Assembly: GCF_004010195.1 (NCBI RefSeq)
Contig: NC_057752.1
Coordinates: 6,690,811 to 6,754,810 of the forward strand
DNA length: 64,000 bases
Direction: 5' to 3'
Source: Chiloscyllium plagiosum
Lineage: Eukaryota
Shown: piece after piece, positions 2,356 to 63,356 of the stretch
Numbering within the stretch: the first letter of the stretch is position 1
Layout of the letters: each line of letters begins with the position of its first letter
Notes under the pieces: generated by a model
Seen by the model: only the letters and a program-made list of their open reading frames with translations
Databases searched by the model: none
Told to the model about the DNA's origin: nothing
Position numbers and translations under genes: made by a program

Positions 2356-2871
2356 TGTCTCATTGCAGGTTCACCTGATTTTAATTTACCTTAAACATTT
2401 TCTAAAACTTTTAAGTCTAATTTAGTGAATCTGTGTTTTTAGCACAGAATAATTTTTGAATAAGTTGTATCAGATAATTGTCTTTGACATTTTGCAACCC
2501 TCGATCAATTCCATCATCCTGCCCTCCCCTTCTATACCATCTCCACCTCTCATGGTTCTCTTGCTGCCCCCACCCCATCCGTCACGGAAATTGTTTTGCC
2601 AGCCAGAGCAACTTTGTCATGGAATTCCCCTTCTGTTTTTGATTTTCTCCAGTTCTGTCACCACCACCAACTGTGAGTAGCCATATGTACATCATGCACT
2701 CCAATCAGCTTTTACTGAAGCAACTCATATCCAAATGCAGCACTACCTGGACAACATCCAGCCTTGGGCTGACAAAACGCAAGTAATGTTTGTGCCACGC
2801 AGAATGATATTCAATTACATTATTGAATTGGTTCCATAGAGGCCGGTATCCAGACACCAAGTTGCCCTTTT

Positions 2872-3186
2872 TTAGATTACTTACAGTGTGGAAACAGGCC
2901 CTTCGGCTCAACAAGTCCACACCGACCCACCGAAGCGCACCCACCCAGACCCATTCCCCTACATTTACCCCTGCACCTAACACTACAGGCAATTTAGCGT
3001 GGCCAATTCACCTAACCTGCACATTTTTGGACTGTGGGAGGAAACCGGAGCACCCGGAGGAAACCCACGCAGACACGGGGAGAATGTGCAAACTCCACGC
3101 AGTCAGTCGCCTGAGGCGGGAATTGAACTCTGGTCTCTGGGGCGTTGTGATGCAGCAGTGCTAACCACTGTGCCACCGTGCCACCC
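2872..3186 (-). mobile_element. HE1-like tRNA-derived V-SINE
   Basis: The reverse complement reads GGGTGGCACGGTGGCACAGTGGTTAGCACTGCTGC..., has the V-domain GTGGAGTTTGCACATTCTCCCCGTGTCTGCGTGGGTTTCCTCCGGGTGCTCC, and ends in a TAATCTAA tail. Confidence 0.9.
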
Positions 3187-3261
3187 GCAAACAGTCATTG
3201 ACTTTAGGACTGTCTCTTCAGAGTCTGCTCTGAGTGTCAGTATCTCTGACATTCCCCTTTT

Positions 3262-3502
3262 TTTCCTTTGCTTTTTTTTTTACCCCCACACTACTGCCTA
3301 ACTGCGGTAATGCTTATTTTTTCCCCAGCACCCATGTTGTGTGTGTGCAGGTGAAAGACACAAGGTGCATGAATCTTTATTCAGTTTCCACCACCAGGAA
3401 GAAAGGAAACACCCAAGTGGCCAGTGACTAGCAGTGCCCTTCACATCAAAGGGCAATGCTGTGTGATCAAACAGTGAAGGGAGGGTAGGGATTAAATCAA
3501 AA
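3262..3502 (-). mobile_element. 5'-truncated polyA-tailed non-LTR retroelement fragment inserted in a Gypsy LTR
   Basis: T-rich tail on the + strand, imperfect ~15-bp flanking duplication (3247-3261 / 3503-3517), and the same 3' sequence as 11743-11848. Confidence 0.75.
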
Positions 3503-3775
3503 TAACATTCCCTGTTTTATCTGTCAGCCAGGGCTTCCTGATTAGGCTGTTAATCTGGCCCAGGTCCCTCCAAGTCAGCATCAATACGGGCAGCAAGTAA
3601 TGCATGGGATCTTGCCTCGTGCGCTAGGAGCGTTTTGGTTGAATTTCTCTCTCCTGGTGGCAAAGGCATCGAGGCGGCTACATCTGTCATGTCCATCTTT
3701 GATTCTGAGGACTCACCAAGACTTGACGGAGGCATAGGTTCTGGCAGCCTTTCCAATTTCGCTCTGAGGGGCAGG

Positions 3776-4050
3776 GCATAGAATCCCTACAATGCAGAAG
3801 CAGGCCTTTTGGCCCATCGAGTCCACACTGACCCTCTGAAGAGCATCCCACTCAGAACCACTACCTTATCCCTGTAATCACTGCATTTCCATTGGCTAAT
3901 CCAGCTAGCCTGCACATTCATGTATACTATCGGTAATTTAGTATGGCCAATATACCTAACCCCCACATCTTTGAACTGTGGGAGGAAACTGGAGCACCTG
4001 CAGGTAATCCATGCAGACACTGGGAGAATGCACAACTCCACACAGACAGT
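3776..4050 (-). mobile_element. HE1-like V-SINE, degenerate
   Basis: TGTGGGAGGAAACTGGAGCACC...GCAGACACTGGGAGAATGCACAACTCCACACAGACAG is the reverse complement of the V-domain. Confidence 0.8.
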
Positions 4051-4795
4051 AACAATTCACCAGCCCAAGGAAAGACCTAAGCTCTGGTATAGACGTGGGA
4101 GAGCTGGGGACACCTTTGATCACCCTCATTTTATCTTCCAATGGGTGTAACCTGGTCTTGTCAACTCTATCGCCCAAGTAGGTCACTTGGGGTGCTTGGC
4201 GCACACATTTTTCCATTCTAAGGCGTACACCCTCCTTCTAGAAACGCCTTAGGACTATATCCAAATTCTTTAAGTGTTCTTTTAGTTTTCCCTGTACTAG
4301 AACATCATCTAGATAAGTGCCAACCTGAGGTAGATCTTGCATAATGTTCTCCATCGTCCGCTGAAAAATTGTACAGGCTGATGATACCCCAAATGGCAGT
4401 CTCGTATGTTGGTACAAACCTTCATAGGTATTAATTGTAGCATACTTCTGGAATCGTGGTCTAAATGCAATTGAAAGTACACACAGCTCATTTCCAGATT
4501 TGTGAAGGACAGACCCCTGCCAGCTTTGTGTATAAATTCGCTGTGTGGAGATTGGGTATTTATCCAGCTGGAAAAAATGGTTTACCGTTTGTTTAAAATC
4601 CCCACAAAGGCGAACTGGTGCTGCCCATTCTGCAAATTGGGCTGGTTTGGTGATTCCTTCACATTCCAGCCTTCTGATTTCAGTCTGTACTTTTACCTGT
4701 AAGGCAAATAGTACTGTGCAGGCCTTGCAGAATTGTGGAATTGCTTCCTGGTCAACATGCAAGAGGCCTCAGTCCCTCTGACAGTCCTAAGATCT

Positions 4796-5065
4796 GGGTG
4801 GCATGGTAGCTGAGTGGTTAGCACTGCTGCCTCACAGGGCCAGGGACCCGGGTTTGATTACCCCCTCTGACCACTGTCTGTGTGGAGGTTGCACATTCTC
4901 CCCATATCTGCGTGGGTTACTCTGGTTTCTCACCTCAGACCAAAAATGTGCAAAATTGACCAAATTTAGAGGGATTAGATGGGTCTGGGTGGGATACTTT
5001 TTGGAGGATCGGTCTGGACCCGATGGACTGAATGGCCTACTTCCACACTGTAGGGATTCTCTGAT
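4796..5065 (+). mobile_element. HE1-like V-SINE
   Basis: GGGTGGCATGGTAGCTGAGTGGTTAGCACTGCTGCCTCACAG head, V-domain and CACACTGTAGGGATTCT tail. Confidence 0.85.
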
Positions 5066-6605
5066 TCCTGGAAGACTTCACTCAGGCAGCCATTTTCAAA
5101 TTGAAAAATGTTGAGCCAATCTAGGTGAATCTCACGACCAATTTTGCCTCATCAAGCTTCGGTCTGAGCCTTTTATTACAATTTCACTTGTAACTCAGCC
5201 AACTGCTTTTCATAAGGGACCAGAACTGAAGTTGTACCCTTAATCTGTGAAATTCCCTGGTAAAGGTTCTCGGCCTCACTGAGGTCTTGCGCAAAGTTAA
5301 GGGCAGGAGTCCAGGCCGAATTTTGTTAAAGACTGATTCTTCGATTACTGATGTGACCGCATCAGTATTAACCTCCTTTAGAACTGGGTGACCATTTATC
5401 CAGGTGTTTTTCTTTTCTGATTTGAATGTTTTTGAGCAAATTAATTGTTCTAAACCAGATGTAGGTGGACTTTCTGGGGTGTACACTCTCCTGGATACCA
5501 GCCTATGAGTTCTGTAACTAAGTTCAGATCTAGGAGGATTCTTGAGCTGTTTCGAGTCCACATGCCGGCAGCGACTACAAAGGCTTGTCAGCCAGGGATC
5601 CTGAAGAAACTTTAACTGTTTGGCCGAGGCTTGGCATTGTTTTGAGGTTTGACTGTGGGCCGACCTAGAGTCTCTCGGTTCAGAATGTGTCCTGAGTGAG
5701 GCTATGCAATTGCCTTCACTCAAGTGGTGTTCCCCAAGCTCAGTTGGACTGGAGAGGGTGTCCACTTACTTCAGAATACCCTGAAACTCATAAGCGCTAC
5801 TTGCCATATTTTCCTATGATAAAGCCAGTTGTCGTGGTCTTTTGAAGTCTAGCTGGGCTTCACCTGGTAGGCATTTTTGCATTCTTACATGATTAATCTC
5901 ACATACCAAATGGTCTCGAAGCACCTTAAGGGTTAAACCAAAGTCACAGGCTTTTGTCAGTTGTCTTAACCTAGTCAAAAATCCCAAAACAAATCCCTCT
6001 TGTTCTTGAATTGCTGAGTAAAACCAATATCATCTCAGAATTAGAGGCGGCTTGGGATCATAATATTCTTTAACTATGTCCATCAGTTCTTGAAAGGTTT
6101 TCGTATCTGGAGTCTCAGGAGAGTCTGGCTCCTAATAACAGAAAAAGCTGCAGGTCCACGGGCTGTCAGGGGAATTACATGTTGCTTTTCATCTGCCCCA
6201 ATATCACTTACCTGGGGTGGGGGGGTGGAGAAAAAAATGCATTCTTTCCACATACTGGCCCAGTCTTTGGCAGGATCAAATGTGTCAAGCTTCCTAAATA
6301 ACAAATGCTTACTCCAACTCAAAGATGACTGTTGTGAGCAAGTTTCTTCAGGTTCATGCTTTAGTCTCGTTGCCACTGAAATAAGTGCACAGAGGACAGT
6401 ATCCTGTCACCAAGTCACCCTTAATTTACACAATGATCCATGAATTTAGTACTTATTCACAGTCAACTCTGAGAGTGTCAGTATCTCTGATAATGCCCTT
6501 CTTATCTGACAGCCAGGGCTCCCTGATTGGGTCTGTTAATCTGGTCTAATCAGGGAACTCCTATTCGATGAAGTCCAACTGGCTGACCTTGTTCCAGTTG
6601 TGACA

Positions 6606-7232
6606 ATTTACCATCACTGAATCCCCACTATCAACCCTCTATCAACGGGGGTTGCCATTGAACAGAAACTCAACTACACTAGCTATGTAAGTATTGTGGC
6701 TACAAAGGCAGGCCAACAACTAGAACTGCTGCACTGAGTAACTTGTCTCCTGTGTTGCCAAAGCATGTTCAGAATCCTAAAATATGATTGAATGCTCCCC
6801 ACTTGCCTGGATGAGTACAGCTCCAACACTTAGAGCTTGATATAGCAATCTGCTTGATTGGTGGTGGAGGGAGTAGATGTTTATAATGTGCTAATGTTCA
6901 GTAGCAGCTGTGTGTACTGTCTGCAAGTGGCATTGCAGAAGTTCTCATAGGCTCATTAGAGAGCATCTTCCAAACCTGCAACCACTTTTTCATCTAGGAG
7001 GACAAAGGTGGCAGATACAGAAGACCACCAACTGCAAATTCCCCTCCAAGCGACTCACCATTCCTGACTTTGGAAACTTACACTGTTCACTCAGTGTTGT
7101 TGTGTCAACGTCCGGGAACTCCTTCCTGATATTGTGGGTCTACCTACACGAGATGCACTGGAGCATTTCAAGTGCCGCTGGAGATGGACAATAAGTGCTG
7201 GCCCAGTCGAAGAAACTCCCATGAATGAATAT
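6606..7232 (+). mobile_element. 3' fragment of CR1-superfamily LINE (same family as 20110-22686)
   Basis: Similar to the reverse complement of 20110-20700 (CCCACTTGCCTGGATGAGTACAGCTCCAACA ... GATGGACAATAAGTGCTGGCCCAG, ATGAATGAAT tail). Confidence 0.7.
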
Positions 7233-7874
7233 TTTAGAAAAAACCTCCTGCACACCAGGCACCACCCATCTTAATGGGAACGCACGCTCAAATTCTTCAG
7301 ACAGTTTGTAAATAAACTGCACCCCTTAAACTGATCAAAACAATCTGGACTGACAAACACTTATTACAGATTGGTAAAAGACAAGTTGCCAGAATAAATT
7401 TTAATAAACAGGATACAAATTGCTTAGCATCTGAACTCTGAGCAGCATTGTTGATAATTGTAAAGCAAACATAGGAAAAATGGGAACGCCCATTAATATG
7501 GTGTTAATATTGTTTGCTTTAAACTCCAAACTGTTGAGTTTTCTAAGCTACAAAAATATCTTTTGAAGTGTTCAAATGAAAAGAGGGAGATGAAATCAGG
7601 AAAAATTGCAAAATTGAAATACCAAATTATGCTGGAAATTTGCAGCTAATCAGTGTATGCGTAGAAAGTCAAGTTAATGTTTTGTGTTCATATAAGTTAT
7701 CAGAACTAAATATAAATGAGCATTTTAGGAAAATCAAAGGGTAAAGGGGGGAATAATAGGTCCTTTAATTGCAGAGGACTGGTTACAAAGTTGAATGGTC
7801 TTCATACTACTGAATGATAATTTTAGAAAAAAGATCATTCACTGAAACAACAGAAGGGCATGAAAAAAAAACAT

Positions 7875-8180
7875 GGGTGGCACGGTGGCTCAGTGGTTAG
7901 CACTGCTGCCTCACAGAACAAGGGACCCGGGTTCGATTCCTACCTCGGGCGACTGTCTGTGTGGAGTTTGCACATTCTCCCCGTGTCTGCGTGGGTTTCC
8001 TTCCACAATTCAAAGATGTGCATGTCAGGTGACTTGGCTAAATTGCCATTGCGTTGGTGCATTAGTCAGGGGTAAATATCAGGTAGGGGAATGGGTCTGG
8101 GTAGGTTACTCTTTGGAGGGTTGATGTGGACTTGTTCGGCCAAATGGCCTGTTTCCATGCTGTAGGGAATCTAATCTAAA
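7875..8180 (+). mobile_element. HE1-like V-SINE
   Basis: tRNA head with A box (TGGCTCAGTGG) and B box (GGTTCGATTCC), V-domain and AATCTAATCTAAA tail. Confidence 0.9.
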
Positions 8181-9159
8181 CAATTTATGTGGAAACATTT
8201 GAGAAGAGACAAATACAAACTGAAAGAGGGGAAACTTGAGACCATGAAAAACTATTGATGCAAAAAATGTGCAATTTTATTTTAATTGATGTAAAAATAA
8301 TGGTCTTGAAAGTGGAGGGACGTGAGTGCAACCTCCTCCCCTTTTGCCGTAACAGTCGGGGGGGGGGGGGGGGGGGGGAAGGATCGACACGAGCAATGTT
8401 GATTTCCTTCTTTTTCCTGAGAGGCACAGCTTCGCTCCTCATCTAGAACACCCATTATTGTTTTTAATGAATGTGGAGGACATGGCTAATGTCAAAATCA
8501 TTTCTCAGAAGAACCTCCAAAGGGCCTGTACTGCGCTGTATTTTTCTATGTTCTAATAGCACTATAGCAAAGCAGTCACCAAATTGTATATGTTGGTCTC
8601 CTTCAAGACCACACAATGAATATTGAATAAAGTTGATGAGATTAAGGGAAGTACATGAAAGTTGCTGTTTTATACAGGAATTGGTTACTTTTGCTGAGCT
8701 GGCACTTCTTTTGTCAGACTTGCGAGGTGTAAGCATCTTGAAGCTGTGGATCTTTTGGCACTGTTTGATGGTATGGGTCACTATGTTCCAATCAATACAA
8801 CTATAGGCTGAGGGAAGGCTGGATTGCTTTCATTTCTTGGAAGAACTGCTTCTTGGAAGATCAGTTGATAACAACATAATATACCTAATAGTAATATTGC
8901 CTGTGTTTTTTTTAACTACTGGAAAACATGCCTTTGTAAGATAAACTAGGCCCCTGTGCTGCTGATCTTGGTTTCATTTTCAAATCCCTAGGGAATCAGA
9001 AGGAACAAAACCTCCAAAGCTTGCAGTAATGGTTTATGTCCCTCCCTCGCTTGGTTCAATAATTGGGAACTTGATAAAGTTTCCACATCTGAGTATTTTG
9101 CCTGCCTTGTCACCCTGAGGAGCCAAATTGTGACCACTTTCCAAATACTTGGAACCAAT

Positions 9160-11600
9160 TTAGACCATAAGATCACAAGAAATAGGAACAGGAGTCAGCC
9201 GTGCGACCCTTCAAGCCTGCTTTGCCGTTCAACAGGATCGTGGTTGATCCGCGATTCTTCACATCCACTTTCCTGCCATTTCTCCATAACCTTTGATTCA
9301 AGAATTCCTCTATTTCAGCCTTTAATATAAATAAGGACTCTTGGGATTCTTAAGGGCCTGACAGGAAATGTGCTGTATGTTTCAATGAGATTACTTCTCA
9401 TTATTCTAAATTCCAATGAGTAGAGTCCCAACCTGTTTAACCTTTGCTCATAAGAGAATCCCTCCATACCAGGGATCATCCTAGTGAGCCTTCTTTGAAC
9501 TGCCTCAAGGAAATTAAAGCTTTCTCCAAATAAGGGGACCAAAACTGCTCACAGTACTCCAGATGTGCTTTCATCAGCACCTTGTATAATTGCAGTAAGA
9601 CTTTCCTATCATAATATTCCAACCCTGTTGGAAAAAAGGGCCAACATTCCATTAACCTTCCTGATGACCTGCTGCACCCATGTGCTACCTTTGTTTTTCA
9701 TGCACAAGTTCTCCCAAGTCCCTTTGTGTTGCAGCTTTCAGCAGTTTATCTCCCATTTAAATCATTTGATGTTTTGTTCTCCCTTCCAAAATGAGCATTA
9801 CACTCCATTATTTGCCAATGTGTTGTCCACTTATTTAATCCATCAGTGTCTCTCTATAAACTATTTGTATCCCTCTTGCAACCTGCCTTTCCACCTATTT
9901 TTTTGTCATCCACAAACCTGGCTACAGTACATTAGTTTCCTTCGTCTAAGTCATTAAATTACATTGGAGACAATTGTGTTTCCAGCACTGATCCCTGTGG
10001 ATCCCCACTAGTCATGATTTACCAACCTGAAAAAGAATCCCTTCTCCTCACTTTTTTCCTGATTATTAGACAATTCTCTATCCGTGCCAGTATACTACAT
10101 TCAACACTATGGGCTCTTATCCAATGACTTAACCTCTCATGAGGTACCTTGTCGAATGCCATCTGGTCGTCCAGATACAACACATCTCCTGGTTCCCCTC
10201 TATTTACTCTGGTTGATTGACAATCAGTCAGACACCATTTCCCTTTCATGAAACCATGTTGACTCTGTTGCATTAGATTATGATTTCCCAAATGTTTTGC
10301 TGTTACTACCTTAATAATTGATTCCAATATATTTCAACAATAAACGTTAGGCTAATCAGCCTATAATTACCTGCTTTTTACCTCCCTACCTTTTTTTTGA
10401 ATAGTGGTCACATTAGCAATTTTCCAATCCTCTGGTACTTCTCCAGAATCCAAGGACTTTTGGAAAATTACAACTATTCCATCCATTATTTCTATACCTC
10501 TTTTAGGATCCTAGGATGCAAGCCCAGTATTAATAGGATGTTTAAAGTATCTTCCATTGTAAAGCCTGATGCGAAATATTTACTTAACTCCTCTGCCATT
10601 TCTTTGTTCCTCATAACTGTCTCACCAGATTCATTTTGTAAGGGGCATATGTTCATTTTGACATCTCTTTGTTTTTATATATTTAAAGAAGCTCTTATTG
10701 CCGTTCTTGTATTCCTCACTAGTCTGCCCTTGTAGTTTATTTAATAATCTTTTTAGTCCATCTTCGCTGCATTCTGAATTTATCCTGGTCTTCAGGCTAT
10801 CACTGACTTTGGCCTTTGTTTTTCCTTTCAACTTAATACTCTATTAAATAGCCATGGTTGGCTTATCCCCTTCTAACTTTTTCCTCCTTCCTGAGATGTA
10901 TTTTCACTGAGAGTCATGAATTACCTCCTTTAATGTCTGTCACTGCTTGCTTACTGTCATTCCTGCTAATCTGCCTGCCAGTCCACTTTAACCAACTCTA
11001 TCCACATTTCATTGTAATTACCTTTATTTAGGTTGAGCACAGTTGTTTCTGACACAGGTTTCTCATTCTCTTGCACTGAATATTAACTTTTATCACATTA
11101 TGATCACTACTTTCTGTGAGATCTTTTACTGTGAGGTCATTTATTAAGCCTGCTTCGTTACCCATTACCAGATCTGAGATAGCCTCCTCCCTGATGGGCT
11201 CCATGAGATATTGCTCGAGGAGATTATCTGTAATGCACTGTATGAATTCATTGTTACAACCAGTTTGATTAAACCAATCAACATGATCAAACTCACCCAT
11301 AATTATTGCTGTATTCTTTTTCATGCTCCTATTATTGGTTGATTTATAGCCTATCCCGCAGAGTAGCTTATGTTTGTTGGGGGGGGGGGGGGGGATGTCT
11401 GTGCACTACTCCTACCAAAGTCTTACCTTTGTTTTTTTTTTATCCTCCACCCAAATGGACTCTACATCACCTGACAGATCTTCTCTCTCAGCTGTCCTTA
11501 TTCCATCTCTTCCTAACAGTGCTACCCAACCACCCTTTCCATCCCTTTTTTCTCTCCAAGAGATGAAATATCCATGAATGTAAATTTCCTAATTTTAATC
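9160..11600 (-). mobile_element. CR1 LINE ORF2 (EN-RT-3' end), decayed
   Basis: Minus-strand LEAVQRRLTRMIPGMEGFSYEQRLNRLGLYSLEFR, SQHGFMKGK.CLT, AFDKVPH and SDHNVI motifs. Confidence 0.9.
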
Positions 11601-11742
11601 TCCTTGTAACAATACTCCATGAAGGCTGGTATTCCATCATCAAGTCACCCTTTATTTACACATTCATAACACATGACACTGATTCCACTTAGCTCCAAGC
11701 TGGCTCCTAGAGTGTACAGAACCCCCTGACACTCCTGTTTAT

Positions 11743-11848
11743 TTTTTCTTTTTTTTTCTTTTTTCTTTTTCTTTTTTTTTCTTTTTCCCACACTACCGCC
11801 TAACTGCGGTAGTGCTTATTTTTTTCCCCAGCACCCATGTTGTGTGTG
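11743..11848 (-). mobile_element. Short 5'-truncated polyA-tailed retroelement fragment inserted in a Gypsy LTR
   Basis: Exact 16-bp TSD TGACACTCCTGTTTAT (11727-11742, 11849-11864), long T-rich tail and a 3' stem-loop CACTACCGC/GCGGTAGTG. Confidence 0.8.
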
Positions 11849-13134
11849 TGACACTCCTGTTTATATCTGTCAGCCAGGACTCCCTGATTGGACCAGTTTA
11901 GCAGCCCCAGTTTTGCATGCAAGTCCTCTTTAGAAAGAATTAGGTATTTAAAATCCAGCTGTGAAAAGCGGTTAACCACTTGTTTGAAATTCCACAAAGG
12001 TGAAACTCCCTGTTGGGCTTCACAGTCCGTACGACCAGTGCAGCCCGTTCTGCAAACCATACTGGTTTGATGATTCTTTGGCTTTCCAGCCTCCTGATTT
12101 CTGTCTCTACTTTTGCATGCAAGGCAAATGGCACTGAGCAGGCCTTGCAGAATCTTGGAATTACTTGGTCAATATTTAAGGTGGCTTTGGCTCCTTTGAT
12201 AGTCCCCTAGCCTTTCCTGAAAAATGTCCGGGTATTTAATTAGGACTTCACTCAGGCAGCCATGTTCTAATTGGAAAATGTTGAGCCAATCAAGTGAAAT
12301 CTTTCTCAACCAATTCTGCCCCATCAAGCTTTGGGTCTGAGCCTTTTACTACAATCAGTGGGAACTGAACCAGCTGCTGCTTCTGAGAGACCAGAACCGA
12401 AGTTGTACCCTTAATCTGTAAATGTTCCTTGGTATAGGTTCTCTGCCTTTTAACCAGACATTTATTTTGATTGGTTCTGATTTGAATGTCACTAAGCAAT
12501 TTAACTGTTCCAAACCAGGTATAGGTGGACTTTGCAGGGTATGCACCCTCCTGGATGACGGCCTATGAGTTTTCTTACTCAGTTTAGGCCTAGTGGGACT
12601 CTGTTGCTGTCTCAAGTCCGTGTACCGGCAACAACTACAATGGCCCAGTTCCTCAAGAGAATCTTAACCATTTGGTTGATGTTTGACTTTGTTTTGGGGT
12701 TTTGCTGTGGACTGATCCAGAGTCCCTCTGTTCAGGATATGTCCTGAGTGCGGCTATGCAATTGCCTTTATTCAAGTGGTGTTCCCCAAGCTCAGTTGGA
12801 CTGGCAAGGGAGTCCACTTCCGTCAGAATACCCTATAATTCATATGCTCTACTTGCCACATTTACGAATGACAAAGTCAGTTGTGGTGCCTGTTTGAAGT
12901 CTAGTTGGGCTTCAGCGAGTAGGTGCTTTTGCATAGTCGCATCATTAATCCCAAATATCAAACTGCCTGTCAGCATCTCACTTAAAGTTAAACCAAAATC
13001 ACATGTGTTTGCCAGTCGTCTTAACCTGGCCAAGAATCCTGACGTGGATTTCCCGGTTCTCAAATGGCCGAGTGAAGCCAATAGCTTCTCAGAATTAGAG
13101 GCGGCTTGGGGTTGTATTGTTGTTTAACTATGTC

Positions 13135-16100
13135 TGTCATCCCGTTCCCCCTCCCCTCAGTCGAAGCAAAATGCTCAGAGACACAGTATAGCTTTACCTC
13201 CTTTATCTTTATTCCAGGCCCTGGAGAGAGAGAGAGAATGATTGCCCATGTGCACAGAGACATGAGTTCTCTGTCTTCTCTGGAAGCGCAGTTTCTTAAT
13301 TAATTATCTAGTCATTTTACAGGGAGGAGAATCCAGATATGGCAACATACGTATTGATTGGGTGACCGTTATAATCAGCGAGCGTCAACAGTAAAGATGA
13401 AGCCATCTGCTGTTATATAATGAATGTTCTTAACCTTAATTGGCTTCATATAATGAATACTTTTTACCTTGTTAAACTGACCTTACATACTGAATGCTTC
13501 CAATATTGTTAATTAGCTCTACATAATGAATGCTTTTCCACTTTGTTAACCCATTACCCTTTTATCCAGCACTCCATTGTTAACTAAGTTCTAATCTGAT
13601 CTGAGTCATGCTCAGCTGAACCTATTGTTTCACATACTCAAAACGTAACTCTTTCCCTACCTGCTCTTACCCAATTAACATTCTCATTCCCTCCTTTTAT
13701 CATTTCATGATAACCACCTAGATGGCACTACCAGGTTTCATAAGACTCTGACAGCCAGTATTTAAGAAAGTTATTGATACACAACATGCAGTGATTATAA
13801 CAACAAAATTACGAGTCTGTTACAGTAAATAGAATTTGAAGAATTCTCCCATGTGGTAACAAAATTCACCAGTAAAATTCTTCAATTCACAGTCCTTAAT
13901 GACCACTCCATCCCCTCCAAGTCGAGTGGAAAAGAGCCAGTTCTGCCAAATCTCCTTCAGTAAAGTCCAACCTGAAAACAAAATTCAGTTTGTCCTTATT
14001 GTCACTCCATGGAGAAATCTGTTTTCATGGATAAGGGCAGTTAAATGCTTCAGAAAACTGAGACCTCCGTCCTTCTAGAGATGCTTCAGATGGAAGATAC
14101 CAGCACATCTGAGTGTGTAGTGCTGCAGCTGCAGCAGCAGGCTAGGTATACACAGCATTCTTTGCTGCTGCTGCTGCTCCCGCTCAGCTGTTAAATGTAA
14201 CAAAGCCAACTGACTGTTATGATGTTAGCTTGATCAGTGAACCTTCATATCCAATAAATGATCGAAAGACAAGGTAAAGCTCACGCGGTTTAATGTCTGT
14301 AGGAAGGCTACTGACAAAAAGCGTACTGACCTCCCCTTCACTGTTGTTAGCTGCTTCATTTTTCGTGCTCATGACTGGTAAGCTGATTGAATCCGTTGGA
14401 TCAGGCTGTGGAGGGGTGGGCGGTGGTCCGAAGGATTTCTTTACCTGTGAATTGAGAAACTCTAGAGAAGATGTTAGCTGCTATTTTGCATTTCCTCTCT
14501 CATTCCTTCCTTGCCAAGGTGATTATCAGTATGAAGACAGCTGCACACTTAACTGCACTAAATAGCATCTGCCTATTTCAACATTCTTTGAATTCTTGAA
14601 GTCTGTAACTCTGTTCACTATTTATGATATTATAAAGTTTTATACAATCCATAAACTTCTAAATTGTTCTGCCTAAACAATTCAGTCAATTATAAACAAC
14701 AATCAGTGGTCCTAAAATCAAACCCTTCGTGACCCATTCATGTTATTCAAAAATTATTTTCCTTTAACAAATTGATACTTGGCAAATGTGAAACCTATGA
14801 GGAAAAATATTTCAAAAATTTGGAATGGCAAGAATGAAACAAAATGTTTCCTGTGCTTTAGCAATTGAAGAGTCAGTTTCAGTTCAGATTTAAATCCCAA
14901 ATATTCATGGGAAATAAGTGCAGAACATTTTAAAGTATTTTTTCCAAAATGAAGCTTCCCAAATAAAACAGTCAGAATTTCAGTGGCAACTTTGGTAGAG
15001 ATCAGCATTCTTTGAATTTGCAGTATGAAGGAGGCCAATAAAGGCTTAACAATAATTAACAGAATTTAAACAGCTTAGCATCAAGTCCTGATATTCTCTC
15101 AAAAATCTTAACAAACCATCAAACTCAAAATGGACTCTTCTTCTTGTGTACACTCTGCAATAAAAACACAGAGGCAAAGATATTTTAATACAAGAATCTC
15201 ATCTGGCTAAAGCATGACCACTGACCCAACTTCTTTTTTTAAAAAAAGGCATTGTAAAGTTTCAAACAATTCCGGGGATCAAGGCACTCAATCAATTGGT
15301 TTTAAGGTTACAAGTTTGATGATTCTGAAATTGTACAACATTACGTCCTTTTTAATGTAAAAACAAAAATCTGCCCCATGACATAGCACACAAAACACAC
15401 TGAATTGAGATTCTGACTCAAACAAGGCAAAGCAGTTACTTAAAAGGGTTTTCTGAACCAGTATTTTAACAAACCAAAATGTTTAAACATCAAGCACTCA
15501 CACCATGGCACAATTTACATTGAAACTTTCCTTTTTCAACCCAAGTATTAGTACAACCTTAATTTCAATGTTTCTCGAGTTTTTTTTTTGCATCCTCTCG
15601 CTGAAGTTACACTCCTAAAAAGAGAGAGCCCTCACAGCGGACTACGTAGTACTACAATCTAAGCCGCCACACTACCACCACCACCATCATCAAACTCGCA
15701 GAGCCTCAAAATTCCCCACTAGGGAACATTAAGCCCTTTTTAACTTTACTCCTCATGGGGGCCTGAATCCCACTTAAACACAGAGCTTGAACCCTAGCAC
15801 AGCATGGAGGACTTGAACATCACTAAAACCCACCCAGTAGACTTGAAACCCAGTACCACGCAGAGGACTCTAACCTTAATCAAACCTACTCCAGTGGACT
15901 CTAACTTCAATCACACCCCCCAAGAGGACTCAACCCAGTACCGCGCATAGGACCCAACCTCAATTAACCCACCCAGGGGACTCTAGCCCCAGAACCATGA
16001 GCAGGACTCTATCCTCAATCACACCCCACTCCCCCCAATACAGTGCAGAGGACTTGAACCTCTGTCTGCCAGCACGCTTGCGAAACTGTCTCTCTCGACT

Positions 16101-16836
16101 GAAGTAATTACCGTTCGAGGAATCCGTAGAATGGAGAGCGATCGAACTAGAGGTCAGTCTCTGGAACATAGGAATATTGAGAGGGACCAAGGTTTAAAAT
16201 CTTGCCTCATGGGCCAGTCCGTCTCGAGACACCGATGTTCCAGGCGGCTGCTGACACTGTCTGATTGTAACTATTTGTTTGGATCCTGCTGACTGTGTGC
16301 CAATATCGTTGTCCCAGGTACCCCCTCAGTCGAAGCAAAATGCTCAGGGACACAGTATAGTTTTACCTCCTTCATCTTTATTCCGGGTCCTGGAGGGAGA
16401 GAAAACAATCGCCCATATGCATAGAGACATGAGTTCATGGTCTTCTCTGGAAGAGCAGTTTCTTAATGAATTATCTAGTCATTTTACAGGGAGAAGCATC
16501 CAGATAAGGCAATATATGTATTGATTGGGTGAGCATCAACAGTAAAAATTAAGCCATCTGTACACAATAAATGTTCTTAACTTTAACTGGCTTCACATAA
16601 TGAATGCTTTTCACCTTGTTAAACTGACCTTATATACTAAACGCTTCCAATATTGTTAAATGGCTCTACATAACGAATGCTTTTCCACCTTGTTAACCCA
16701 TTACCCTTGCCTCCAGCACCCCATTGTTAATTGCAAGTTCTTATCTGTTCTGAGTCATGCTCAGCTGAACTTCTTGTTTCACAAAACTCAAAACTTTACT
16801 CTTTCCCTACCTGCTCATACCCAATACACATTCTCA
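13135..16836 (-). mobile_element. Complete but apparently non-coding LTR (ERV-like) element nested in Gypsy gag
   Basis: Direct repeats at 13135-13686 and 16304-16836 (~540 bp, TG..CA outer ends). 4-bp TSD TGTC (13131-13134, 16837-16840); the empty site is seen at ~6072-6090. PPT AAAAGGAGGGAA on the minus strand (13698-13687) and tRNA-Ser-like PBS at 16302-16281. Confidence 0.88.
15740..16070. repeat. Degenerate tandem repeat (GAGGACT..AACC units) in the leader of the LTR element
   Basis: Repeated CAGAGGACT/GGACTTGAA(A)CC/GGACTCTAACC motifs at ~30-40 bp spacing. Confidence 0.7.
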
Positions 16837-17559
16837 TGTCCATCAATTCTTGGAAAGTTTTAGTATCTGGTGCCTCAGGGAAAGTTTGGCTCCTAATAAG
16901 CGAAAAAGCTGCTAGTCCATAAGCTGTTAAGGGAATTACTGGTTGCTTTTCATTTACCCCAGTGTCATTTGCCTGGGGAAAAAATAACACATTCTTTCCA
17001 CATACTGGGCCCAGTCTTTGACGGCAGGATCAAACGAGTCAAGCTTTCCAAATAGCAGCATGATGCCAGAAATGCTTACCCCAACTCAAAGATAACTGTT
17101 AAGAGCAAATCTCTTCAGGAGCATGTTTTTCTCTCATCGCCACTGAAATAGCTCTATGGAGGCAGGTATCCCGTCACACTTTATTCCTGCTTCCAATCGT
17201 ATGTGACACTGATCCAGCTCCTTCAAAGCGAGCTCTCAGTGAGCAGGATATCTGTCAGCGAAGGCTCCCTGATTAGACCAGATCAATGAACTCGTATTCT
17301 GTGAGGTCCACCTGGCTGACCTTGTTACAATTACTGCAGCAAGTAAGTTGCTGGAATGGCTATGAGATCGCATTCATTTACCTCATTTTGCGCCATCAGT
17401 TCATCTATTTTATTCCAAATGCATCTTGCATGAAGATACACAGCCTTTAAGTTTATTCTGTTGTCAAATTTCTCTACACTTTTATGGTTCTTTAGTATAG
17501 TGTGACATTCAAATGTTCAGTCCCTTCCTTTTGTTTTCTGGTAACGTTCAACTCCATCA

Positions 17560-18420
17560 TGAACCTGCAATCCCACCTTCTCCTTTACCTTTGATATAAG
17601 TTTTCATGCAATTGAACCCACTCCCCAACTATTTAGTTTAAAAGCTTACCTACAGCCCTAGTTATGCATTCACTTCTTCAGTCTTGTTGACTTTGTTCCA
17701 AATTTCTTGTTGCTCAGGCAGTAATCCGGTGATGATTACTTTGTCTCAGTTCTGCTTTTTAATTTAGCCCCCAACTACTCATATTCCCTCTGCAGAACTT
17801 CTTTCCTCTTTCTACTGACATCATTGGTACCTACGTGGACCACGGCAACTGAACCTTTCCCCTCCGCAAAGTCTCTCTGCAGGCTTTGGAATTCTCGATC
17901 TTAGCCAAAGAGAACAGTGTCTGTTCCCAACACTATACTATACTCAATGACAACTACATTGCTATTTCCCCCCCCCCCCCCCAAACCCCCTCTCGAATGA
18001 TTCCCTGTACCATGGTGCTATGGTCAGTTTGCTCATCCTCCCTACAGCTCCACTCTCATCCACACAGGGAACAAGAATCTCAAACTTGTTCGACAAGCTC
18101 AAGGGCAGAGGCTCCTGGAACACTACCTCCTGAATCCCTCTACCTGCCTCACTCGTAATCTCACCTTCCTGTCACTCACTACTGACCAAATGAGACGTAG
18201 TTAAGGTATGTGATTATCTGCTGAAACACAGCATGCAGGTAACTCTTCTCCTCCCTGATGTGTCACAGTGTTCGAAGCTCAGATTTCAGCTCATCGATTC
18301 TGAGCAGAGTTCCTAAAGCATGAAACGTTTACTATAGAACTGGTTACTATGAACCACAACAGGGTCCACCAGCTCCCACATCACACAGGTACAATACGTC
18401 GCCTGGCCCGGCATCACTTT
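17560..18420 (-). mobile_element. CR1 LINE ORF1 (esterase-like) region, decayed
   Basis: TCATTGGTACCTACGTGGACCACG is the reverse complement of VVHVGTND, the CR1 ORF1 SGNH-esterase motif. Confidence 0.7.
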
Positions 18421-20109: not shown

Positions 20110-22686
20110 TTTTTTTATTTATTCATAAGCTGTGGGCATTTCTCACTGGGCCAGCAATTATTGCCAGTTCCTGCTTGCCCTTGAGAAGGTGACAGTGAGC
20201 TGCTTTCTTGAATTGCTGCAGTCCATTTGTTGTAGGTAGACCCACAATGCCATTAGGGAGGGAATTCTAGGATTTTGACCTGACAACAATGAAAGAATGG
20301 TGATAAATTGCCAAGTCAGGATGTATCTGCTGCCCTTGTCCTTTTAGGTAGAAGCGGTCATGGGTTTGGAAGGTGTTGTCTCAGGATCTTTGGTGAATGT
20401 CTGCAGTGCATCTTGCAGATGCTACACCCTGCTGCTACTGACCATTGATGATGGAGGAAGTGAATCATTGTGAATGTGCTGCCAATCATGTGGGCTGCTT
20501 TGTCCTGGATGCTGTAAAGCTTCTTGAATATTGTTGGAATTGCAATCATCTAGGCAAGTGTGGAGTATTCCATCTCACTCCTGACTTGTGGGCAGGCTTG
20601 TGGGAGTAAGGAGGTGAATTACTTAGTGCAGTATTCTTAGCCTTGACCTTCTCTTATTGCCACTGTATTTATGTGGTGAGTCCAGTTGAATTCTGGGTCC
20701 AAACTACACCCCCACCACCACCACCACACACTCTGATAGTGGGGAATTCAGTGATGGTGATGCCGTTTAGTGTAAGGAGCAATGGTTGGATTGTCTCTTG
20801 TCATTACTTGGCAGTTGTGCAGCTTGAATGTTATTCGTTATTTTCAGTCCATGCCTGCATATTGTGCAGGTCTTGTGCATTTGAACATGAACTGTTTTAG
20901 TATCTGAGGAGTCATGAATGGTGCTGAGCATTGTGTAATCATCAGCAAACATCCCCACTTCTGATCTTATGATGGAGGGAAGGTCATTGAAGGTAGTTGG
21001 GCCAAGTCCTGCTGAGATAACTGATCTCAACCATCTTCCTATGACTCCAACCAGTGGAACCAAGGCTGTAATGAGGTCAGGAGCTGAGTGGCTCTGGTAG
21101 AACCCAAACTGGGCGTCACTGAAAAGGTTATTGCTGAGCAGGTGCTGCTTGACAGCACGATTGATGACACCTTCCAGCACTTTGCTAATGATCAAGAGTA
21201 GCCTGGTGGGCCAGGTTAGATTTGTTCTAAAGTTTATGTATAGGATACAGGATGTACCAGCAATGTTCCACATCGTCAAGTAGATGCCAGTGTTGTAACT
21301 GTACTGGAATAGATGGCAAGGGAAACAGCAAGTTCTGGAGCTCAAGTCTTCAGTATTATTGCCAGAAATGTTGTCAGGGCCTGTAGCCTTTGCAATATCC
21401 AATGTCTCCAACCATTTTTTGATATCGCGTGAATCAAATTGCCTGAAGACTGGATCTGTGATGCTGGAGACCACTGGAGGAGGCCAAGATGGATCATCCA
21501 CTTGTCTTTTCTGGCAGAGGATTGCTACAAACATTTCAGCCTTATCTTTTGCACTGAGTTGTTGGGCTTTTCAATCGTGGAAGATGGAGCTATTTGTGGA
21601 GCCACCTCCTCCAGTGAATTGTTTAATTGTCCACCACCATTCATGACTGGATATGGCAGGACTGCAGAGCTGAGATCAGATCTGATGATTGTGGGATCAC
21701 TTTGCTCTGTCTATCAATTGCTAATGCTGTTTGACACGTAAGTAATCCTGTTTGGTAGCTTCACCAGGTTGACCCCTCATTTTTAGGCATGTCTGTTGCT
21801 GCTCCTGGCATGCCCTCTTCCACTCTTTGTTGAACCAGAGTTGGTCCCTGGCTTGATGGTAATGGTAGAGTGGTGGACATGCTGGGCCATGAGGTTGCAA
21901 ATCATCTTGGAGTGCAATTTAGCTGCTGCTGTTGGCCTACAGTGCCTCATGGATGCGCAGTCTTGAGTTGTTAATCTGTTCTCATTTAGCACAGTAATAA
22001 CACCACACAACATGATGGAGGGTAATTTCAATGTGAAGATGGGACTTCGTTTCCACAAGGATTCTGCGGTGGTTGTTTTTACAGATGCTGTCATTGACAG
22101 ATACATCTGTGGTAGGCATATTGGTGAGGATGAGGTCAAGTATAGTTTTATCTCTTGGTCTCCGCTCTATTTGCCACAGACTCAATCTAGCAGCAGCACC
22201 CAACCAGATTGATCAGTAATATTGTTGATGAGCCACTCTTGGTGGTGGACATGGAAATCCCCCCACCCAAAGTACATTCTGCGCTCTTGCCACCCTCCGA
22301 GCTTCCTCCAAGTGGTTCTCAACATGGAGGAGTATTTATTTATCGACCATGGGATAATGGTATATGGTAATCAGTCGTGTCTCATGGCATCAGGTGAAAC
22401 ATGGGCTTCATGGGGTCCAGAGTCAATGTTGAGTACCCCAAGGGTAACTCTCTCCTGACTGTGTATACCACTGTGCCACCACCTCTGCTGGGTTTGTCCT
22501 GTCGGTGGGACAGGATATAATTGAGGGATAGTGATGATAGTGTCTGTGAAGTATGATTCTGAGAGTATGACTTTGTCAGGCTGCTGTTTCACTAGTCTGT
22601 AAGGCAGTGCTCCCAAGTTTGGCACTAGCCCCTAGATATTAGTAAGGCGGACTCTGCAGGGTTAACAGGGCTGCTTTTGCAGTTGC
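20110..22686 (-). mobile_element. CR1-superfamily LINE (EN-RT), decayed; 5' part continues at 26398-26776
   Basis: Minus-strand QQPD.VILSESY (APE), ILDLILTN, KATGPDNI, QFGF.Q.HSAPDLITALV and NDLPSIIRSEVGMFADD (RT) motifs. Confidence 0.85.
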
Positions 22687-22794: not shown

Positions 22795-23104
22795 TATGAT
22801 GATGCTGCTCCTTTACTGAGGTTGTGTTGTCCTTGGTTTTTTGTTCAGGAGGTCATAAAGATGCAGGCTTTGAAATGTTGAGGTTTGAAGGGTTTCAGGG
22901 CCAGTTTGATTATAGATAACAGGTACTGCCTCAGACAAAAGGCTTTCAAGTTTAAAAAAAACACTTGTACAAATGAAAGGGGAGTGGCCAGTTCTCCCAG
23001 GTTTTACTTTGGTTTGATTTGGTTTTTAGCATTCTGGCTGTTGTGAAAAGCAGTCGTTGTGAAGCTGCCGGACTCGAAGCAGGTCCATGCTGGTCCTTCC
23101 TCTC
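22795..23104 (+). mobile_element. Partial LTR-like sequence related to solo LTR 45405-46063
   Basis: The start resembles the reverse complement of the end of 45405-46063 (…GGTT.T.TTGTCCT…GAGGT.ATAA…GGCCAG.TCTC.CAG). Confidence 0.45.
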
Positions 23105-25805
23105 TCATAGAGTCATAGAGATGTACAGCATGGAAACAGACCCTTTGGTCCAACTTCTGCATGCCGACCAGATATCCCAACATAATCTAGTCCAATTTTC
23201 CAGCATTTCGCCCATATCCCCCTCAACCTTTCCTATTCTTCCACCCATCCAGATGCCTTTTAATTGTTGTAATTGTACAAACCTCCAACACTTCCTCTGA
23301 CAGATCATTCCAAGCACGCACCACCCTCTGTGTAAAAAGGTTGCCCCTTGGAGGCCTTTTATATTTTTCCCCCCTCACCTTAAACCTATGCCTTCTAGTT
23401 CTGGGCTCCCCCACCCCAGGAAGATGACCTTGTCGATTTATCCGATCCATGCCCCTCATGATTTTATAAACCTCCGACGCTCCAGGGAAAACAGCTCCTG
23501 CCAATTCAGCCTCTCCCTATAGCTAACACTTCAACCCTGGCAACATCCTTGTAAATCTTTTCTGAACCCTTTCAAGTTTCACAACATCCTTCTGATAGGA
23601 AGGAGACCAGAATTGCACGCAATATTCCAACAGTGGCCTAACCAATGTCCTGTACTGCCGCAACATGACCTCCCAACTCCTGTACTCAATACTCTGACCG
23701 ATAAAGGAAAGCAAACCAAATGCCTCCTTCGCTATCCCATCGACCTGCAACTCTACTTTCAAGGAACTATGAACCTGCACTCCAAGGTCTCTTTGTTCAG
23801 CAACACTCCCCAGGAGGTTATCATTAAGTGTCCAGGTCCTGCTGTGATTTGCTTTCCCAAAATGTGCATCTTGCATTTATCTAAATTAAACTCCATCTGC
23901 AACTCCTCACCCCATCTGATTGGCCCATCTGATCAAGATCCCATTGTACTCTGAGGTAACCTTTGCTGTCCACTACACCTCCAATTTTGCAAACGTACTA
24001 ACTATACTTCCTACGTTCACATCCAAATCATTTATATAATTGATGAAAAGCAGTGGAACCAGCACCGATCCTTGTGGCACACCGCTGGTCACAAGCCTCC
24101 AGTCTGAAAAGCAGCCCTCCACCACCACCCTCTGTCTTCTACCTTTGAGTCAGTTTTGTATCCAAATGGCTAGTTGTCCTTGTATTCCATGAGATCTAAC
24201 CTTGCTAAATAGGCTAGCATGAGGATCTTTGTCAAATGTCTTATTGAAGTCCATATAGATCACGTCCACTGCTCTGCCCTCATCAATCCTCTTTGTTACT
24301 TCTTCAAAAAATTCAATCAAGTTTGTGAGACATGATTTCCCATGCACAAAGCCATGTTGACTATCCCTAATCAGTCCTTGCCTTTCCAAACATATGTAAA
24401 TCTTGTTTCTTGGAATTCCCTCCAACAACTTGCCTACCGCTGATGTCAGGCTCACCGGCCTATACTTCCCTGGCTTGTCCTTACCACCTTTCTTTAATGG
24501 TGGCACCACATTAGCCAACCTCCAGTCTTCTGGCACCTCACCCGTGACTATCAATGATACAAATATCTCAGTGAGGGGCCCAGCACTCACTTCCCTAGCT
24601 TCCCACAGAGTTCTATGGTATACCTGATCAGGTCCTGGGGATTTATCTACTTTGATGCATTTCAAGACATCCAACACCACCATCTCTGCAATATGGACAT
24701 TCAAGATGTCACCATCTATTTCCCCACAGTCTGTATCTTCCATGTCCTCCTTTGCAGTAAACACTGATGCCAAATACTCTCCCATCTCCTGCGATTCCGC
24801 ACATTGGCGGATCTTTGAGGGACCCTATTCTCTTCCTAGTTACCCTTTTGTCCTTCATGTTTTTATAAATACCCTTTGGATTATCCTTAGCCTTATTTTC
24901 AAAGCTAGCTCATGTTCCCTTTTTCCCCTTCCTGATTTCCCTCTGAAGTATATTCCTACTGCCTTTATACTCTTCTAAGGATTCACTCGATCTCTCCTGT
25001 CTATACCTGACATATGCTTCTTTCTTTTTCTGAACCAAAACTTCAATTTCTCTAGTCATCCAGCATTTCCTGCACCTACCAGGAATATAGTGTCTCTGGA
25101 CTCCCATTTTCCAGCCGTCCCTTTACCTGTGAACATCTGCCCCCAATCAGCTTTTGAAAGTTCTTGCCGAAGACCGTCAAAACTCGCCTTCCTCCAGTTT
25201 AGAACTTCAACTTTTAGATTTGGTCTATGCTTTTCCATCACTATTTTAAAACTAATAGAATTATGGTCGCTGGCCCCAAAGTGCTCCCCCACTGACACCT
25301 CAGTCACATGCCCTGCCTTATTTCCCCAAGAGTAGGTCAAGTTTTGCACCTTCTCTAGTAGGTATATCCACCTACTGATTCAGAAAATTTTCTTGTACAC
25401 ACCTAACAAATTCCTCTCCATCCAAACCCTTAACATTATTGCAGTCCCAGTCTATGTTTGGAAATTAAAAATCCTCTACCATAAGCACCCTATTATTCTT
25501 GGAGGTAACTGAAATCTCCTTACAAATTTGTTTCTTAATTTCCTGCTGACTATTGGGGGTTTATAATACAATTCCAAAAAAGTGATTATCCCTTTCTTAT
25601 TTCTCTGTTCCACCCAAAAAACCTCCATGGATGTATTCCAAGGATTATCCTCCCCAAGTACAGCTGTAATGCTATTCCTTATCAAAAATGCCACTCCCCC
25701 TCCTCTTTTGCGCTCCCATCAATCCTTCCTATAGCATGTGTATCCTGGAACATTAAGCTGCCAGTCCTGTCCATCCCTGAGACACGTCTCTGTAATTGCT
25801 ATGCC
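23105..25805 (-). mobile_element. CR1 (HER1-like) LINE, near-complete ORF2 with internal deletions
   Basis: ORFs 24150-24785 (KSPGPDQ..VPEDWRLANVVP..YRPVSLTS..QHGF..GKSCLTNLIEFF..VDVIYMDF.K.FDK) and 23523-23876 ([15 protein letters not shown]); CATAGAGTCATAGA 3' tail at ~23105. Confidence 0.92.
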
Positions 25806-28714: not shown

Positions 28715-30777
28715 AGACGTAAGAGCAGAAATCAGCCCATTTAGCCCATCAAGTCTGCTCTGCCATTCAATCATGGCTGAAACGTTTCTCAACCCCATTC
28801 TCCCACTTTCTCCCTGTACCCCTTGATACTCAAGAACTTATCTATCTCAGTCTTAAATATACTCGGTGACCTAGCCTCCACAGCCTTCTGTGGCAATGAA
28901 TTCCATAGATTCACCACTCTTTGGCTGAAGAGGTTTCTCTTTATCTCCGTTCTAAAAGGTCATCCCTTTTATTCGAAGGCTCTGCCCTCTGTTCCTAGTC
29001 TGTCCTACCAATGGAAACGTCTTCCCAACATCTATTCTGTCCAGGCCATTCAGTATTCTGTATATTTCATTTCGATCCCCCTATATCCTTCTAAACTCCA
29101 AGTATAGACCAGAGTCCTCAAACATTCCTCTTATGTTAAGCTTTTCATTCCTGGGACCATTCTCGTGAACCTCCTCTGAACAAGCTCCAGGGCCAATATA
29201 TCCTTCCTGAGACATGGGGCCCAAAACTGCACACAATACTCCAAATGTGGTCTGGTATTATAGAGCCTCCAAAGTGAGATCTGCTTTTATATTCAAGTCC
29301 TCTCAAAATAACTGCTATCATTGCATTTGCCTTCCTAACTACTGACTCAACCTGCAAGTTTACCTTGAGAGAATCCTGGACTAGAACTCCCAAGTTGCTT
29401 TGCACTTCAGACTTGTGAATTTTCTCCCCATTTGGAAAATAGTCCATGCCTCTATTCTTCTTACCAAAGTGCATGACCTCTCACTTCCCCACGTTGTACT
29501 TCATCTGCCAATTCTCTGCCCACTCTCCTAATCTGTCTAAATGCTTCTGCAACTTCCCTACCTCCTGAATGCTATCTGCCCCTCTACCTATCTTTGTCTC
29601 GTCTGCAAACCTACCCAGAATGCCCTTCGTTCCTTCATCCAAATCATTAATATATAAAGTGAAAAGTTGTGGTCACAACACTGAGCTTTGCTTCACTGGC
29701 TGCCATCCTGAGAAGGACCCTTTTATCCCCACTCTCTGCTTTCTGCCAGACAGCCAAACTTCTATCCATGCTAGCACCTTGCCTCTGACACCATTGGCCC
29801 TTACCTTACTCAGTAGCCTCCTGTGCAGCACATTGTCAAAGGCCTTCTTGAAGTCCAGGTAGATAACCTCCATTGGCTCTCCTTGGTCTAACCTGCTTGT
29901 TACTTCTTCAAAGAGTTCTAGCAGATTTGTCAGGCATGACCTTCCCTTGATGAAACCATGCTGTCTTTGCCCTATTTTACCATGCATTTCCAAGTAGTCA
30001 GAAATCTCATCCTTCACAATGGGTTCCAGGATCTTGCCCACACCCGAGGTTAGGTGAATTGGTTTGTAATTTTCCGTGTCCTGCCTTGCTCCCTTTTTAA
30101 ACAGGGTATCATGTTAGTGATTTTCCAGTCCTCTGGGGCCCTCCCTGATTCTAGCGATTCCTGAAAGATCACCACGGACGCCTCCACTATCTCTTCAGCT
30201 ATCTCCCATAGAACTGTGGGGTGTAGTCTATCTGGTTCAGGTGATTTATCCACCTTCAGGCCGTTCAGATTTTCTAGCATCTTCTCCTTGGTGATGGTCA
30301 CCATACTCACCTCTGCCCCCTCACTCTCTCAAATATTTGGGATATTACTCAGGTCTTCCACTGTGAAGACTAACGCAAAGTAATTGTTCAGTTCCTCAGC
30401 CATTTTTCTTGTTCCCCACTACTGTCTCTCCAGCGTCATTTTTCAGCGGCCCAGTGTCTACCTTTGCCTGTCTTTTGCCCTTTATATGTCTAAAGAAATT
30501 CATACAGACTTCTTTTATATTACTGGCTAGCTTACCCTCCTAGTTAATGTCCTCTGTTGGTCTTTGTAAGCTTCCCAATCCTCTGGTTCTACACTGCCCT
30601 TCACCACATTATATGCTTTTTCTTTTGCTTTTATGCTATCCCTGACTTTCCTAATCAGCCATGATTGCCTCATCCTCCTGTACATTGCTTCTTTTTCCTC
30701 AGGAAGGATCTCTGCTGTGTCTCCTGAATTACTCCCAGAAACTCCTGCCATTGCTGTTCCATTGTCTTTCCTGCTAG
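28715..30777 (-). mobile_element. CR1 LINE ORF2 3' half, decayed
   Basis: QHGFIKGRSCLTNLLELFEEVTSRLDQGEPMEVIYLDFKKAFDNVLHRRLLSKV; MHFGKKNRG...LGVLVQDSLKV. Confidence 0.92.
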
Positions 30778-33389: not shown

Positions 33390-33719
33390 AAGGAGAGTAT
33401 TAAGTTAAAAGAGCATACAAGGAGACCAAAGTCAGTGATAACCTGAAGACTGGAATAAACTCAGAATCCAGCAAAGGAGGACTAAAAAGATGAGGAAAGA
33501 GAAAATAACTTAGCGAGGAACATAACAACTGACAATAAGAACTCCTTTAAATATATATATAAAAAAGGAAGCTTGGGGTCGAGATGAACACAGGCCCCTT
33601 AGAAAATGAATCTGGCAAGAGAGTTATGGGGAACCAGGAAATGCAGGGGAGTTAAACAGGTATTTTGCATCAGTCTTTATGGTGGAAGATATTTTGAGCA
33701 TTGCATTAATACTCAAAGA
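33390..33719 (+). mobile_element. CR1 fragment (host of the PLE insertion; resumes at ~35992-36165)
   Basis: KAYK....SDNLKTG / ELN.YFASVF.VED-like CR1 sequence that continues after the PLE with TITRVVLDKLMG and DALVVIFQKSLDSGEVPKDWK. Confidence 0.75.
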
Positions 33720-62817: not shown

Positions 62818-62985
62818 GTGAACGCCCTTTTCATTGTAACCAGTGTGGCGCCTCATTCACACAGAAAGGAAATCTCCTGCGGCACATCAAATTACACTCT
62901 GGGGAGAAGCCTTTTAAATGTCCATTCTGCAATTATGCCTGTCGAAGAAGGGATGCACTCAGCGGACATCTCCGAACGCATGCAG
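62818..62985 (+). CDS. IKZF4: IKZF4 (Eos) coding exon with zinc fingers 2 and 3 (168 nt)
   Basis: ctttcctcttcag|GT GAA...GCA G|gttcgt. Translates (G)[55 protein letters not shown]. Confidence 0.97.
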
Positions 62986-63356
62986 GTTCGTGGGTGGAAT
63001 TTTGTCAAAAACATGGAGAGAAAAGTGAACTTTTGACACACAAAAAAATTTTAACCTTCCCTTGCACAACAGCTGTTTTAAAGATCTGGGAAGAAATTGA
63101 GTAACTAGAACAATGGAATTGGATTTAAGGGAGGAATAATTTGCGCAAAATCAGCTTTGTCTCAATTTTCATTCTGTGAGCAAAGCAAAGGTTTTGAATC
63201 AATTTAACCAGAACATGTATCCGATTTATTTACAATTAACAGCATTTCTTTAATTTTTAATATGCAACTTATTATTCTCCTAAAGGTTTCATGTTCTTAT
63301 TACGCTTCTGTGGATATGCTTATTGTTTCCTGCTTATCCAAAGAGATGAGAAAGAT

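Follow-up and report, generated by a model that had tools for sequence, protein, structure and literature searches.

The 64,000-nucleotide stretch of DNA analyzed here (hereafter, the window) carries two decayed copies of Gypsy, both on the minus strand: copy 1 at about 2824–6605 and copy 2 at about 11615–17338. Four LTR copies were found in the window by BLAST and nhmmer; two of the four are filled by an insert, and both inserts are located in 3′ LTRs. The 3′ LTR of copy 1 (2824–3562, minus strand) is split by insert 1 and by an unrelated interspersed repeat at about 2870–3190, and that of copy 2 (11615–11910, minus strand) is split by insert 2, its start being deleted together with most of pol. 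The 5′ LTRs of copies 1 and 2, also on the minus strand, occupy 6377–6605 and 17143–17338, respectively. The host elements bear the marks of Gypsy (Ty3) retrotransposons, namely a Gypsy-type reverse transcriptase between direct LTRs and a primer-binding site: the reverse-transcriptase remnant of copy 1 (4238–4768, minus strand) matched Pfam RVT_1 (9e-09), its best PDB match was the Ty3 reverse transcriptase (5e-09), K02A2.6-like Gypsy pol proteins reached 42–47% in the best rows, and the 5′ LTR of copy 1 is followed by a TGG primer-binding-like site. Four internal blocks are 76–82% alike between the two copies. No clean flanking duplication was seen around either whole Gypsy copy, and the pairing of the LTRs thus rests on continuous internal sequence.

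Several further features of the host copies were observed. In both of them, pol has been lost on the side facing the 3′ LTR, where integrase would follow the reverse transcriptase. The first approximately 45 bp of the 3′ LTR are also gone in both copies, with pol losses of differing length, and the breakpoints (3562 and 11910) are close together within the LTR. Abundant short interspersed repeats (2870–3190, 3776–4050, and 4795–5065) break the 3′ LTR and pol of copy 1. In copy 2, a second LTR element (13136–16835) is nested in the gag region; its LTRs of about 550 bp are 85% alike, with TG...CA ends and a 5-bp duplication (ATGTC), and no ORF in its internal stretch reaches 120 aa.

Insert 1 (3263–3504, minus strand) is the 5′-truncated 3′ end of a poly(A)-tailed retroposon. 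It consists of a T-rich tail at 3263–3282 and a body at 3283–3504, the A-tail being on the left with the element on the minus strand. Insert 2 (11743–11848, minus strand) is a shorter 5′-truncated copy of the same family, with its tail, likewise on the left, at 11743–11786 and its body ending at 11848. In their common core, 61 of the 63 bases are identical, with two mismatches and one gap, and BLAST and nhmmer revealed no copies of the insert in the window other than these two. The sequence-only reading had described a T-tailed insert of about 240 bp in the LTR with a duplication of about 15 bp, and the same element, about 105 bp long, at the homologous position of the other copy; both descriptions hold, the duplication being 14 bp. 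The insertion marks of the L1 group, i.e., a poly(A) tail, a target-site duplication, and variable 5′ truncation, are present in the insert family. Directly before the tail of insert 1, a stem-loop with a 10-bp stem and a 6-nt loop is found at 3288–3313 (minus strand). This stem-loop carries two changes in insert 1, which are minority letters in most sequencing runs, and is perfect in insert 2. Its folding is better in insert 2 (z = −3.0, with none of 200 shuffles as good) than in insert 1 (z = −1.9). The whole of insert 1 folds no better than its shuffles (z = −0.62).

The two insertion sites were compared base by base. At site 1, the target-site duplication is ACATTCCCCTTTTT on the tail side (3249–3262) and ACATTCCCTGTTTT on the 5′ side (3505–3518); the former is 14 bp long with two mismatches against the other copy, and the latter overlaps a TATA-like box. 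At site 2, TGACACTCCTGTTTAT is found on both the tail side (11727–11742) and the 5′ side (11849–11864) as a perfect 16-bp duplication, whose first two bases are common to the element. As the TG that opens TGACACTCCTGTTTAT also fits the element as its following two bases (microhomology), the duplication at site 2 can be read as 14 bp starting from ACA. Both sites therefore show a 14-bp duplication that starts with ACA and ends directly before ATCTG, with the element on the strand of the LTR, and at both sites the cut falls within the TATA-like box of the LTR.

The LTR motifs involved were labeled by the textbook consensus sequences for the TATA box, CCAAT, and AATAAA. The 3′ LTR of copy 2 contains a predicted TATAAA box at 11860–11865, in which the tail-side cut comes after the first T, a predicted CCAAT motif upstream of it at 11887–11891, and a predicted AATAAA poly(A)-signal-like motif downstream of insert 2 at 11651–11656, all on the minus strand. 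At site 1, the TATA-like box is degenerate. The duplication puts the TATA-like box 15–17 bases ahead of the 5′ end of the element, which is in sense with the LTR. It was also noticed that at the 3′ junction of insert 2 (11738–11743) the A-tail and the duplicated target together make a new AATAAA.

The next point concerns whether the two inserts go back to one event or two. The LTR pieces are only 72–88% alike (eight local alignments), against the 61 of 63 identical bases of the insert core, and each duplication matches its own LTR and not the other one. These two facts mean that the insertions are younger than the divergence of the LTRs and separate from each other. A single old insertion in a Gypsy master copy, multiplied along with Gypsy or carried from LTR to LTR by gene conversion and later shortened by a deletion in one copy, would explain why both inserts are in the 3′ LTRs of related Gypsy copies, and element variants with an internal skip do occur (4 of the 15 joints listed among 135; see below). 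However, the partner LTR of copy 1 is empty, insert 2 runs straight into a perfect duplication that fits its own LTR, and the inserts are much more similar than the LTRs that house them. This explanation is largely refuted already, and we regard it as extremely improbable. The empty state of 6377–6605 had been noticed from the sequence alone; we found in addition that its target stretch is mutated. For the LTR at 17143–17338, the earlier statement stands only in part: no insert is present, but about 25 bp including the target stretch are missing, so that this LTR gives no information on occupancy and is not an informative empty site. The LTRs with a near-intact target are the two filled ones, and the two unfilled LTRs may have suffered their target damage after the insertions took place.

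The two inserts represent independent, site-directed insertions. In the window, sequences within three edits of the 19-bp target occur only at the two filled sites. Generic T-rich sites numbered 245–1233 by four definitions, and in a rough model the chance that two independent generic insertions would both hit this site in the four LTRs was 2e-4 to 8e-6. The dispersed TTTT/AA insertion that marks a generic L1 was not seen here, since both copies (n = 2) are at one homologous site among these 245–1233. The sequence-only reading had proposed two independent insertions at one fixed LTR site, and this proposal is supported by the window and by the contigs of three organisms described below.

To follow the family outside the window, we used contigs and RNA of other organisms. 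The insert was present in 20 of the 24 listed runs, which cover four organisms and nine studies; none of the listed runs containing it was recorded as RNA. DNA contigs of organisms A, B, and C (one set each) and an RNA run of organism B were mapped onto 3192–3620 at 80% likeness, a level at which repeats may mislead the joints. The element family runs on past 3504 in 106 RNA reads, which establishes the 5′ truncation of insert 1. Among the 15 joints listed out of 135, seven unite the LTR flanks without the insert, four skip within the element, two go back, and two link the element to the right flank of the LTR at new truncation points (3409 and 3470). Among the 12 listed out of a further 123, the element passes into the LTR from 3458 and from 3325, each time with a short duplication-like spacer. 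The four new joints between the element and the LTR (from 3409, 3470, 3458, and 3325) end at 3515–3518. Joints to this LTR were ascertained by the query and are the only non-tandem flanks that can be named, while the spacers of tandem copies are less ascertained. Six head-to-tail rows of the element were found among the same 12, and their spacers, as judged by eye, are target-like in four and not target-like in two. The rows with a target-like spacer come from contigs of organisms B and C, and none occurs in the window. The loose ends at the tail of the element showed only poly(T) in the 30 letters given.

The depth of the contigs gives a less direct view. The summed contig depth on the element was 6e5–9e5, against 2–22 for single contigs among those listed, and this summed depth is not a copy number. 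Five of the 16 bins on the element, among the deepest ones, exceeded the best LTR bin 11–41 fold in contig set X1, 53–74 fold in X8, and 111–156 fold in X9. Old LTR copies that differ by 15–28% often fail to map, and the LTRs are thus under-counted. The excess of 11–156 fold could reflect stacking of the element combined with an under-count of old LTRs, or else a large number of copies at other places, and it does not favor exclusive use of the LTR site.

With these data, we consider it probable that the two inserts are dead, 5′-truncated 3′ ends belonging to an abundant family of non-LTR retrotransposons with a preference for a single site in the LTRs of this Gypsy family. The Tx1 clade is its most likely affiliation. 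In favor of a site preference, two of the two copies in the window are at the site, in the same 14-bp frame. The main competing explanation takes the family for a general element of L1 type, or a loosely targeted one, that inserts at T-rich sites genome-wide and for which the LTR site is no more than a hot spot serving a minority of copies. The element depth far exceeding that of the LTR, the nick at site 1 (TTTT/A), which is also compatible with the generic L1 consensus, and the two of six tandem spacers that are not target-like all point in this direction. On the other hand, the chance that both copies in the window would lie at the site is at most 2e-4 under the generic model, the 14-bp frame is fixed, four of the six tandem spacers are target-like, and old LTR copies, which differ from each other by 15–28%, must be under-counted. 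The hot-spot explanation is rather unlikely, yet it keeps an appreciable share of our expectation.

Under the preferred explanation, a family with a site preference, the insertion would proceed by target-primed reverse transcription. A presumed endonuclease of the element would nick the T-rich strand directly before ATCTG, within the TATA-like box, and the T-rich end set free in this way would anneal to the poly(A) tail of the RNA and prime copying; a second cut would be made 14 bp off, and the copying would end early. The outcome would be a 14-bp duplication with the element co-oriented with the LTR, and the rebuilt target would be open to repeated insertion, from which head-to-tail stacks could arise.

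One reading of the cut position is that the site was chosen for promoter capture, i.e., that the family lives on the promoter of another retrotransposon across at least four organisms. The CCAAT and TATA-like boxes of the LTR would then stand in sense before the 5′ end of the element, with the AATAAA of the LTR behind its tail. The stolen LTR promoter would drive transcription of a full-length copy, starting about 15 bases into the element, and the LTR would be severed from its own transcript. In RNA run X21 (about 2% of the run), 1906 reads were obtained, and priming from the tail side accounts for nearly all of them. The same picture would result if oligo-dT primed on any A-tailed copy carried within host transcripts, so these reads are no evidence for autonomous transcription or for promoter capture. 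Some letters of the X21 RNA on 3296–3416 are rare in the DNA contigs of the same organism (for example, 356 of 698 reads have G at 3416, a letter that makes up about 2% of the X8 depth), which indicates that the transcripts derive predominantly from a few loci or from one subfamily. We hold promoter capture to be a doubtful reading, though the geometry fits; if proven, it would be the only thing raising the present case above the known habit of site preference.

The coding capacity and identity of the family were also searched for. Inserts 1 and 2 are non-coding 3′ ends, and neither an ORF that could be linked to the insert nor a longer copy was found in the protein and contig searches. The translated frames of the insert had no homologue; six matches in the representative protein library were dismissed as repeat proteins sharing only a WWWK-like word. 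The exact insert pattern was found in no viral, metagenome, or prokaryote contig, and the LTR pattern in no viral contig. A palindromic 21-mer of the insert gave seven metagenome matches and one viral match, none of which extends past 21–22 bases, and these were ascribed to chance. As for a small-RNA head, neither insert, both being without a 5′ end, matched Rfam at E up to 1; the four sub-threshold Rfam matches in 2700–18000 include none on an insert. The Tx1 clade is suggested as the most likely one by behavior and analogy. A different possibility accepts the targeting as real but takes the inserts for a non-autonomous SINE-like or composite element moved in trans, as SINEU is for Tx1-Mar, and not for the 3′ UTR of an autonomous LINE. 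The sequence reached is all non-coding, the family is very abundant, and SINEU itself provides a precedent (PMC4494074). Against this, the fragments show no Rfam RNA head, though both are truncated, and the many differing 5′ truncation points are a usual mark of long elements. We judge a SINE-like origin improbable.

Other elements and a gene fragment are present in the window. Decayed LINE reverse-transcriptase fragments at 20767–21570, 23100–24824, 29673–30113, and 46059–47500 belong to the direct repeat families D1–D11, and BLAST showed no relation of these to the insert. Long open frames at 33603–35745 surround an N gap (34639–35274) and are accompanied by a C-rich tandem repeat; their end resembles what we take to be the GIY-YIG endonuclease of a Penelope-like element, and the part before the gap has no Pfam match. 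Two C2H2 zinc fingers at about 62830–62990 on the plus strand are presumably encoded by an Ikaros-family exon (IKZF2/IKZF4-like). The inserts may be in or upstream of this zinc-finger gene, antisense to it.

If the preference holds genome-wide, the family would be a very abundant group of non-LTR elements with a site preference and a defined 19-bp target. It would also offer a natural case for how an APE endonuclease reads sequence and a marker for dating the decay of Gypsy in these genomes. In the literature searched, with Repbase Reports and most subscription papers outside its scope, no description of such an insertion in a shark was found.

Comparable systems have been described in other vertebrates. 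Tx1 families that prefer LTR retrotransposons, and tandem copies that sandwich a TSD, have been reported (Kojima 2015, PMC4494074), and target specificity was assigned there when more than 20% of the flanks were one target. The crocodilian families Tx1-8_Crp and Tx1-4_AMi prefer LTR retrotransposons, as is proposed for the insert family, a likeness that is drawn from their description (PMC4494074); their LTRs may be used at the same TATA-like position. The crocodilian report is repeated in PMC5753468. SINEU-3 and Tx1-Mar in Mariner-N4_AMi resemble the present case in having fixed sites in an old, abundant transposon and tandem copies around the TSD, which is 16 bp in length, with a preference ranging from 13% to 90% of copies (PMC4494074). 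They are unlike it in that their target is a DNA transposon and their direction is often the opposite one (PMC4494074). SINEU carries snRNA heads (PMC4494074), and none was seen in the truncated pieces here. Transcription from the flanking target has already been proposed by the author of that paper (PMC4494074).

Tx1L of Xenopus laevis, inserted in Tx1D, is likewise a site-specific non-LTR element that parasitizes a transposon, and its specificity is set by its endonuclease (PMC1950540, PMC4494074). In contrast to the present case, its target is a piggyBac-type DNA transposon, and AGTT follows the nick (PMC1950540, PMC4494074), where ATCT is found here. The stringency of the Tx1L endonuclease has been set against the TTTT/AA of L1 (Repanas 2007, PMC1950540). 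Human L1 shares with the insert family the poly(A) tail, the 5′ truncation, and a nick between a T-tract and A, but it is promiscuous (TTTT/AA; PMC1950540), whereas here both copies and several contigs show one 19-bp context. The insertion habit is already known from the crocodilian Tx1 families, and by analogy the insert family appears to behave like a target-preferring Tx1 element.
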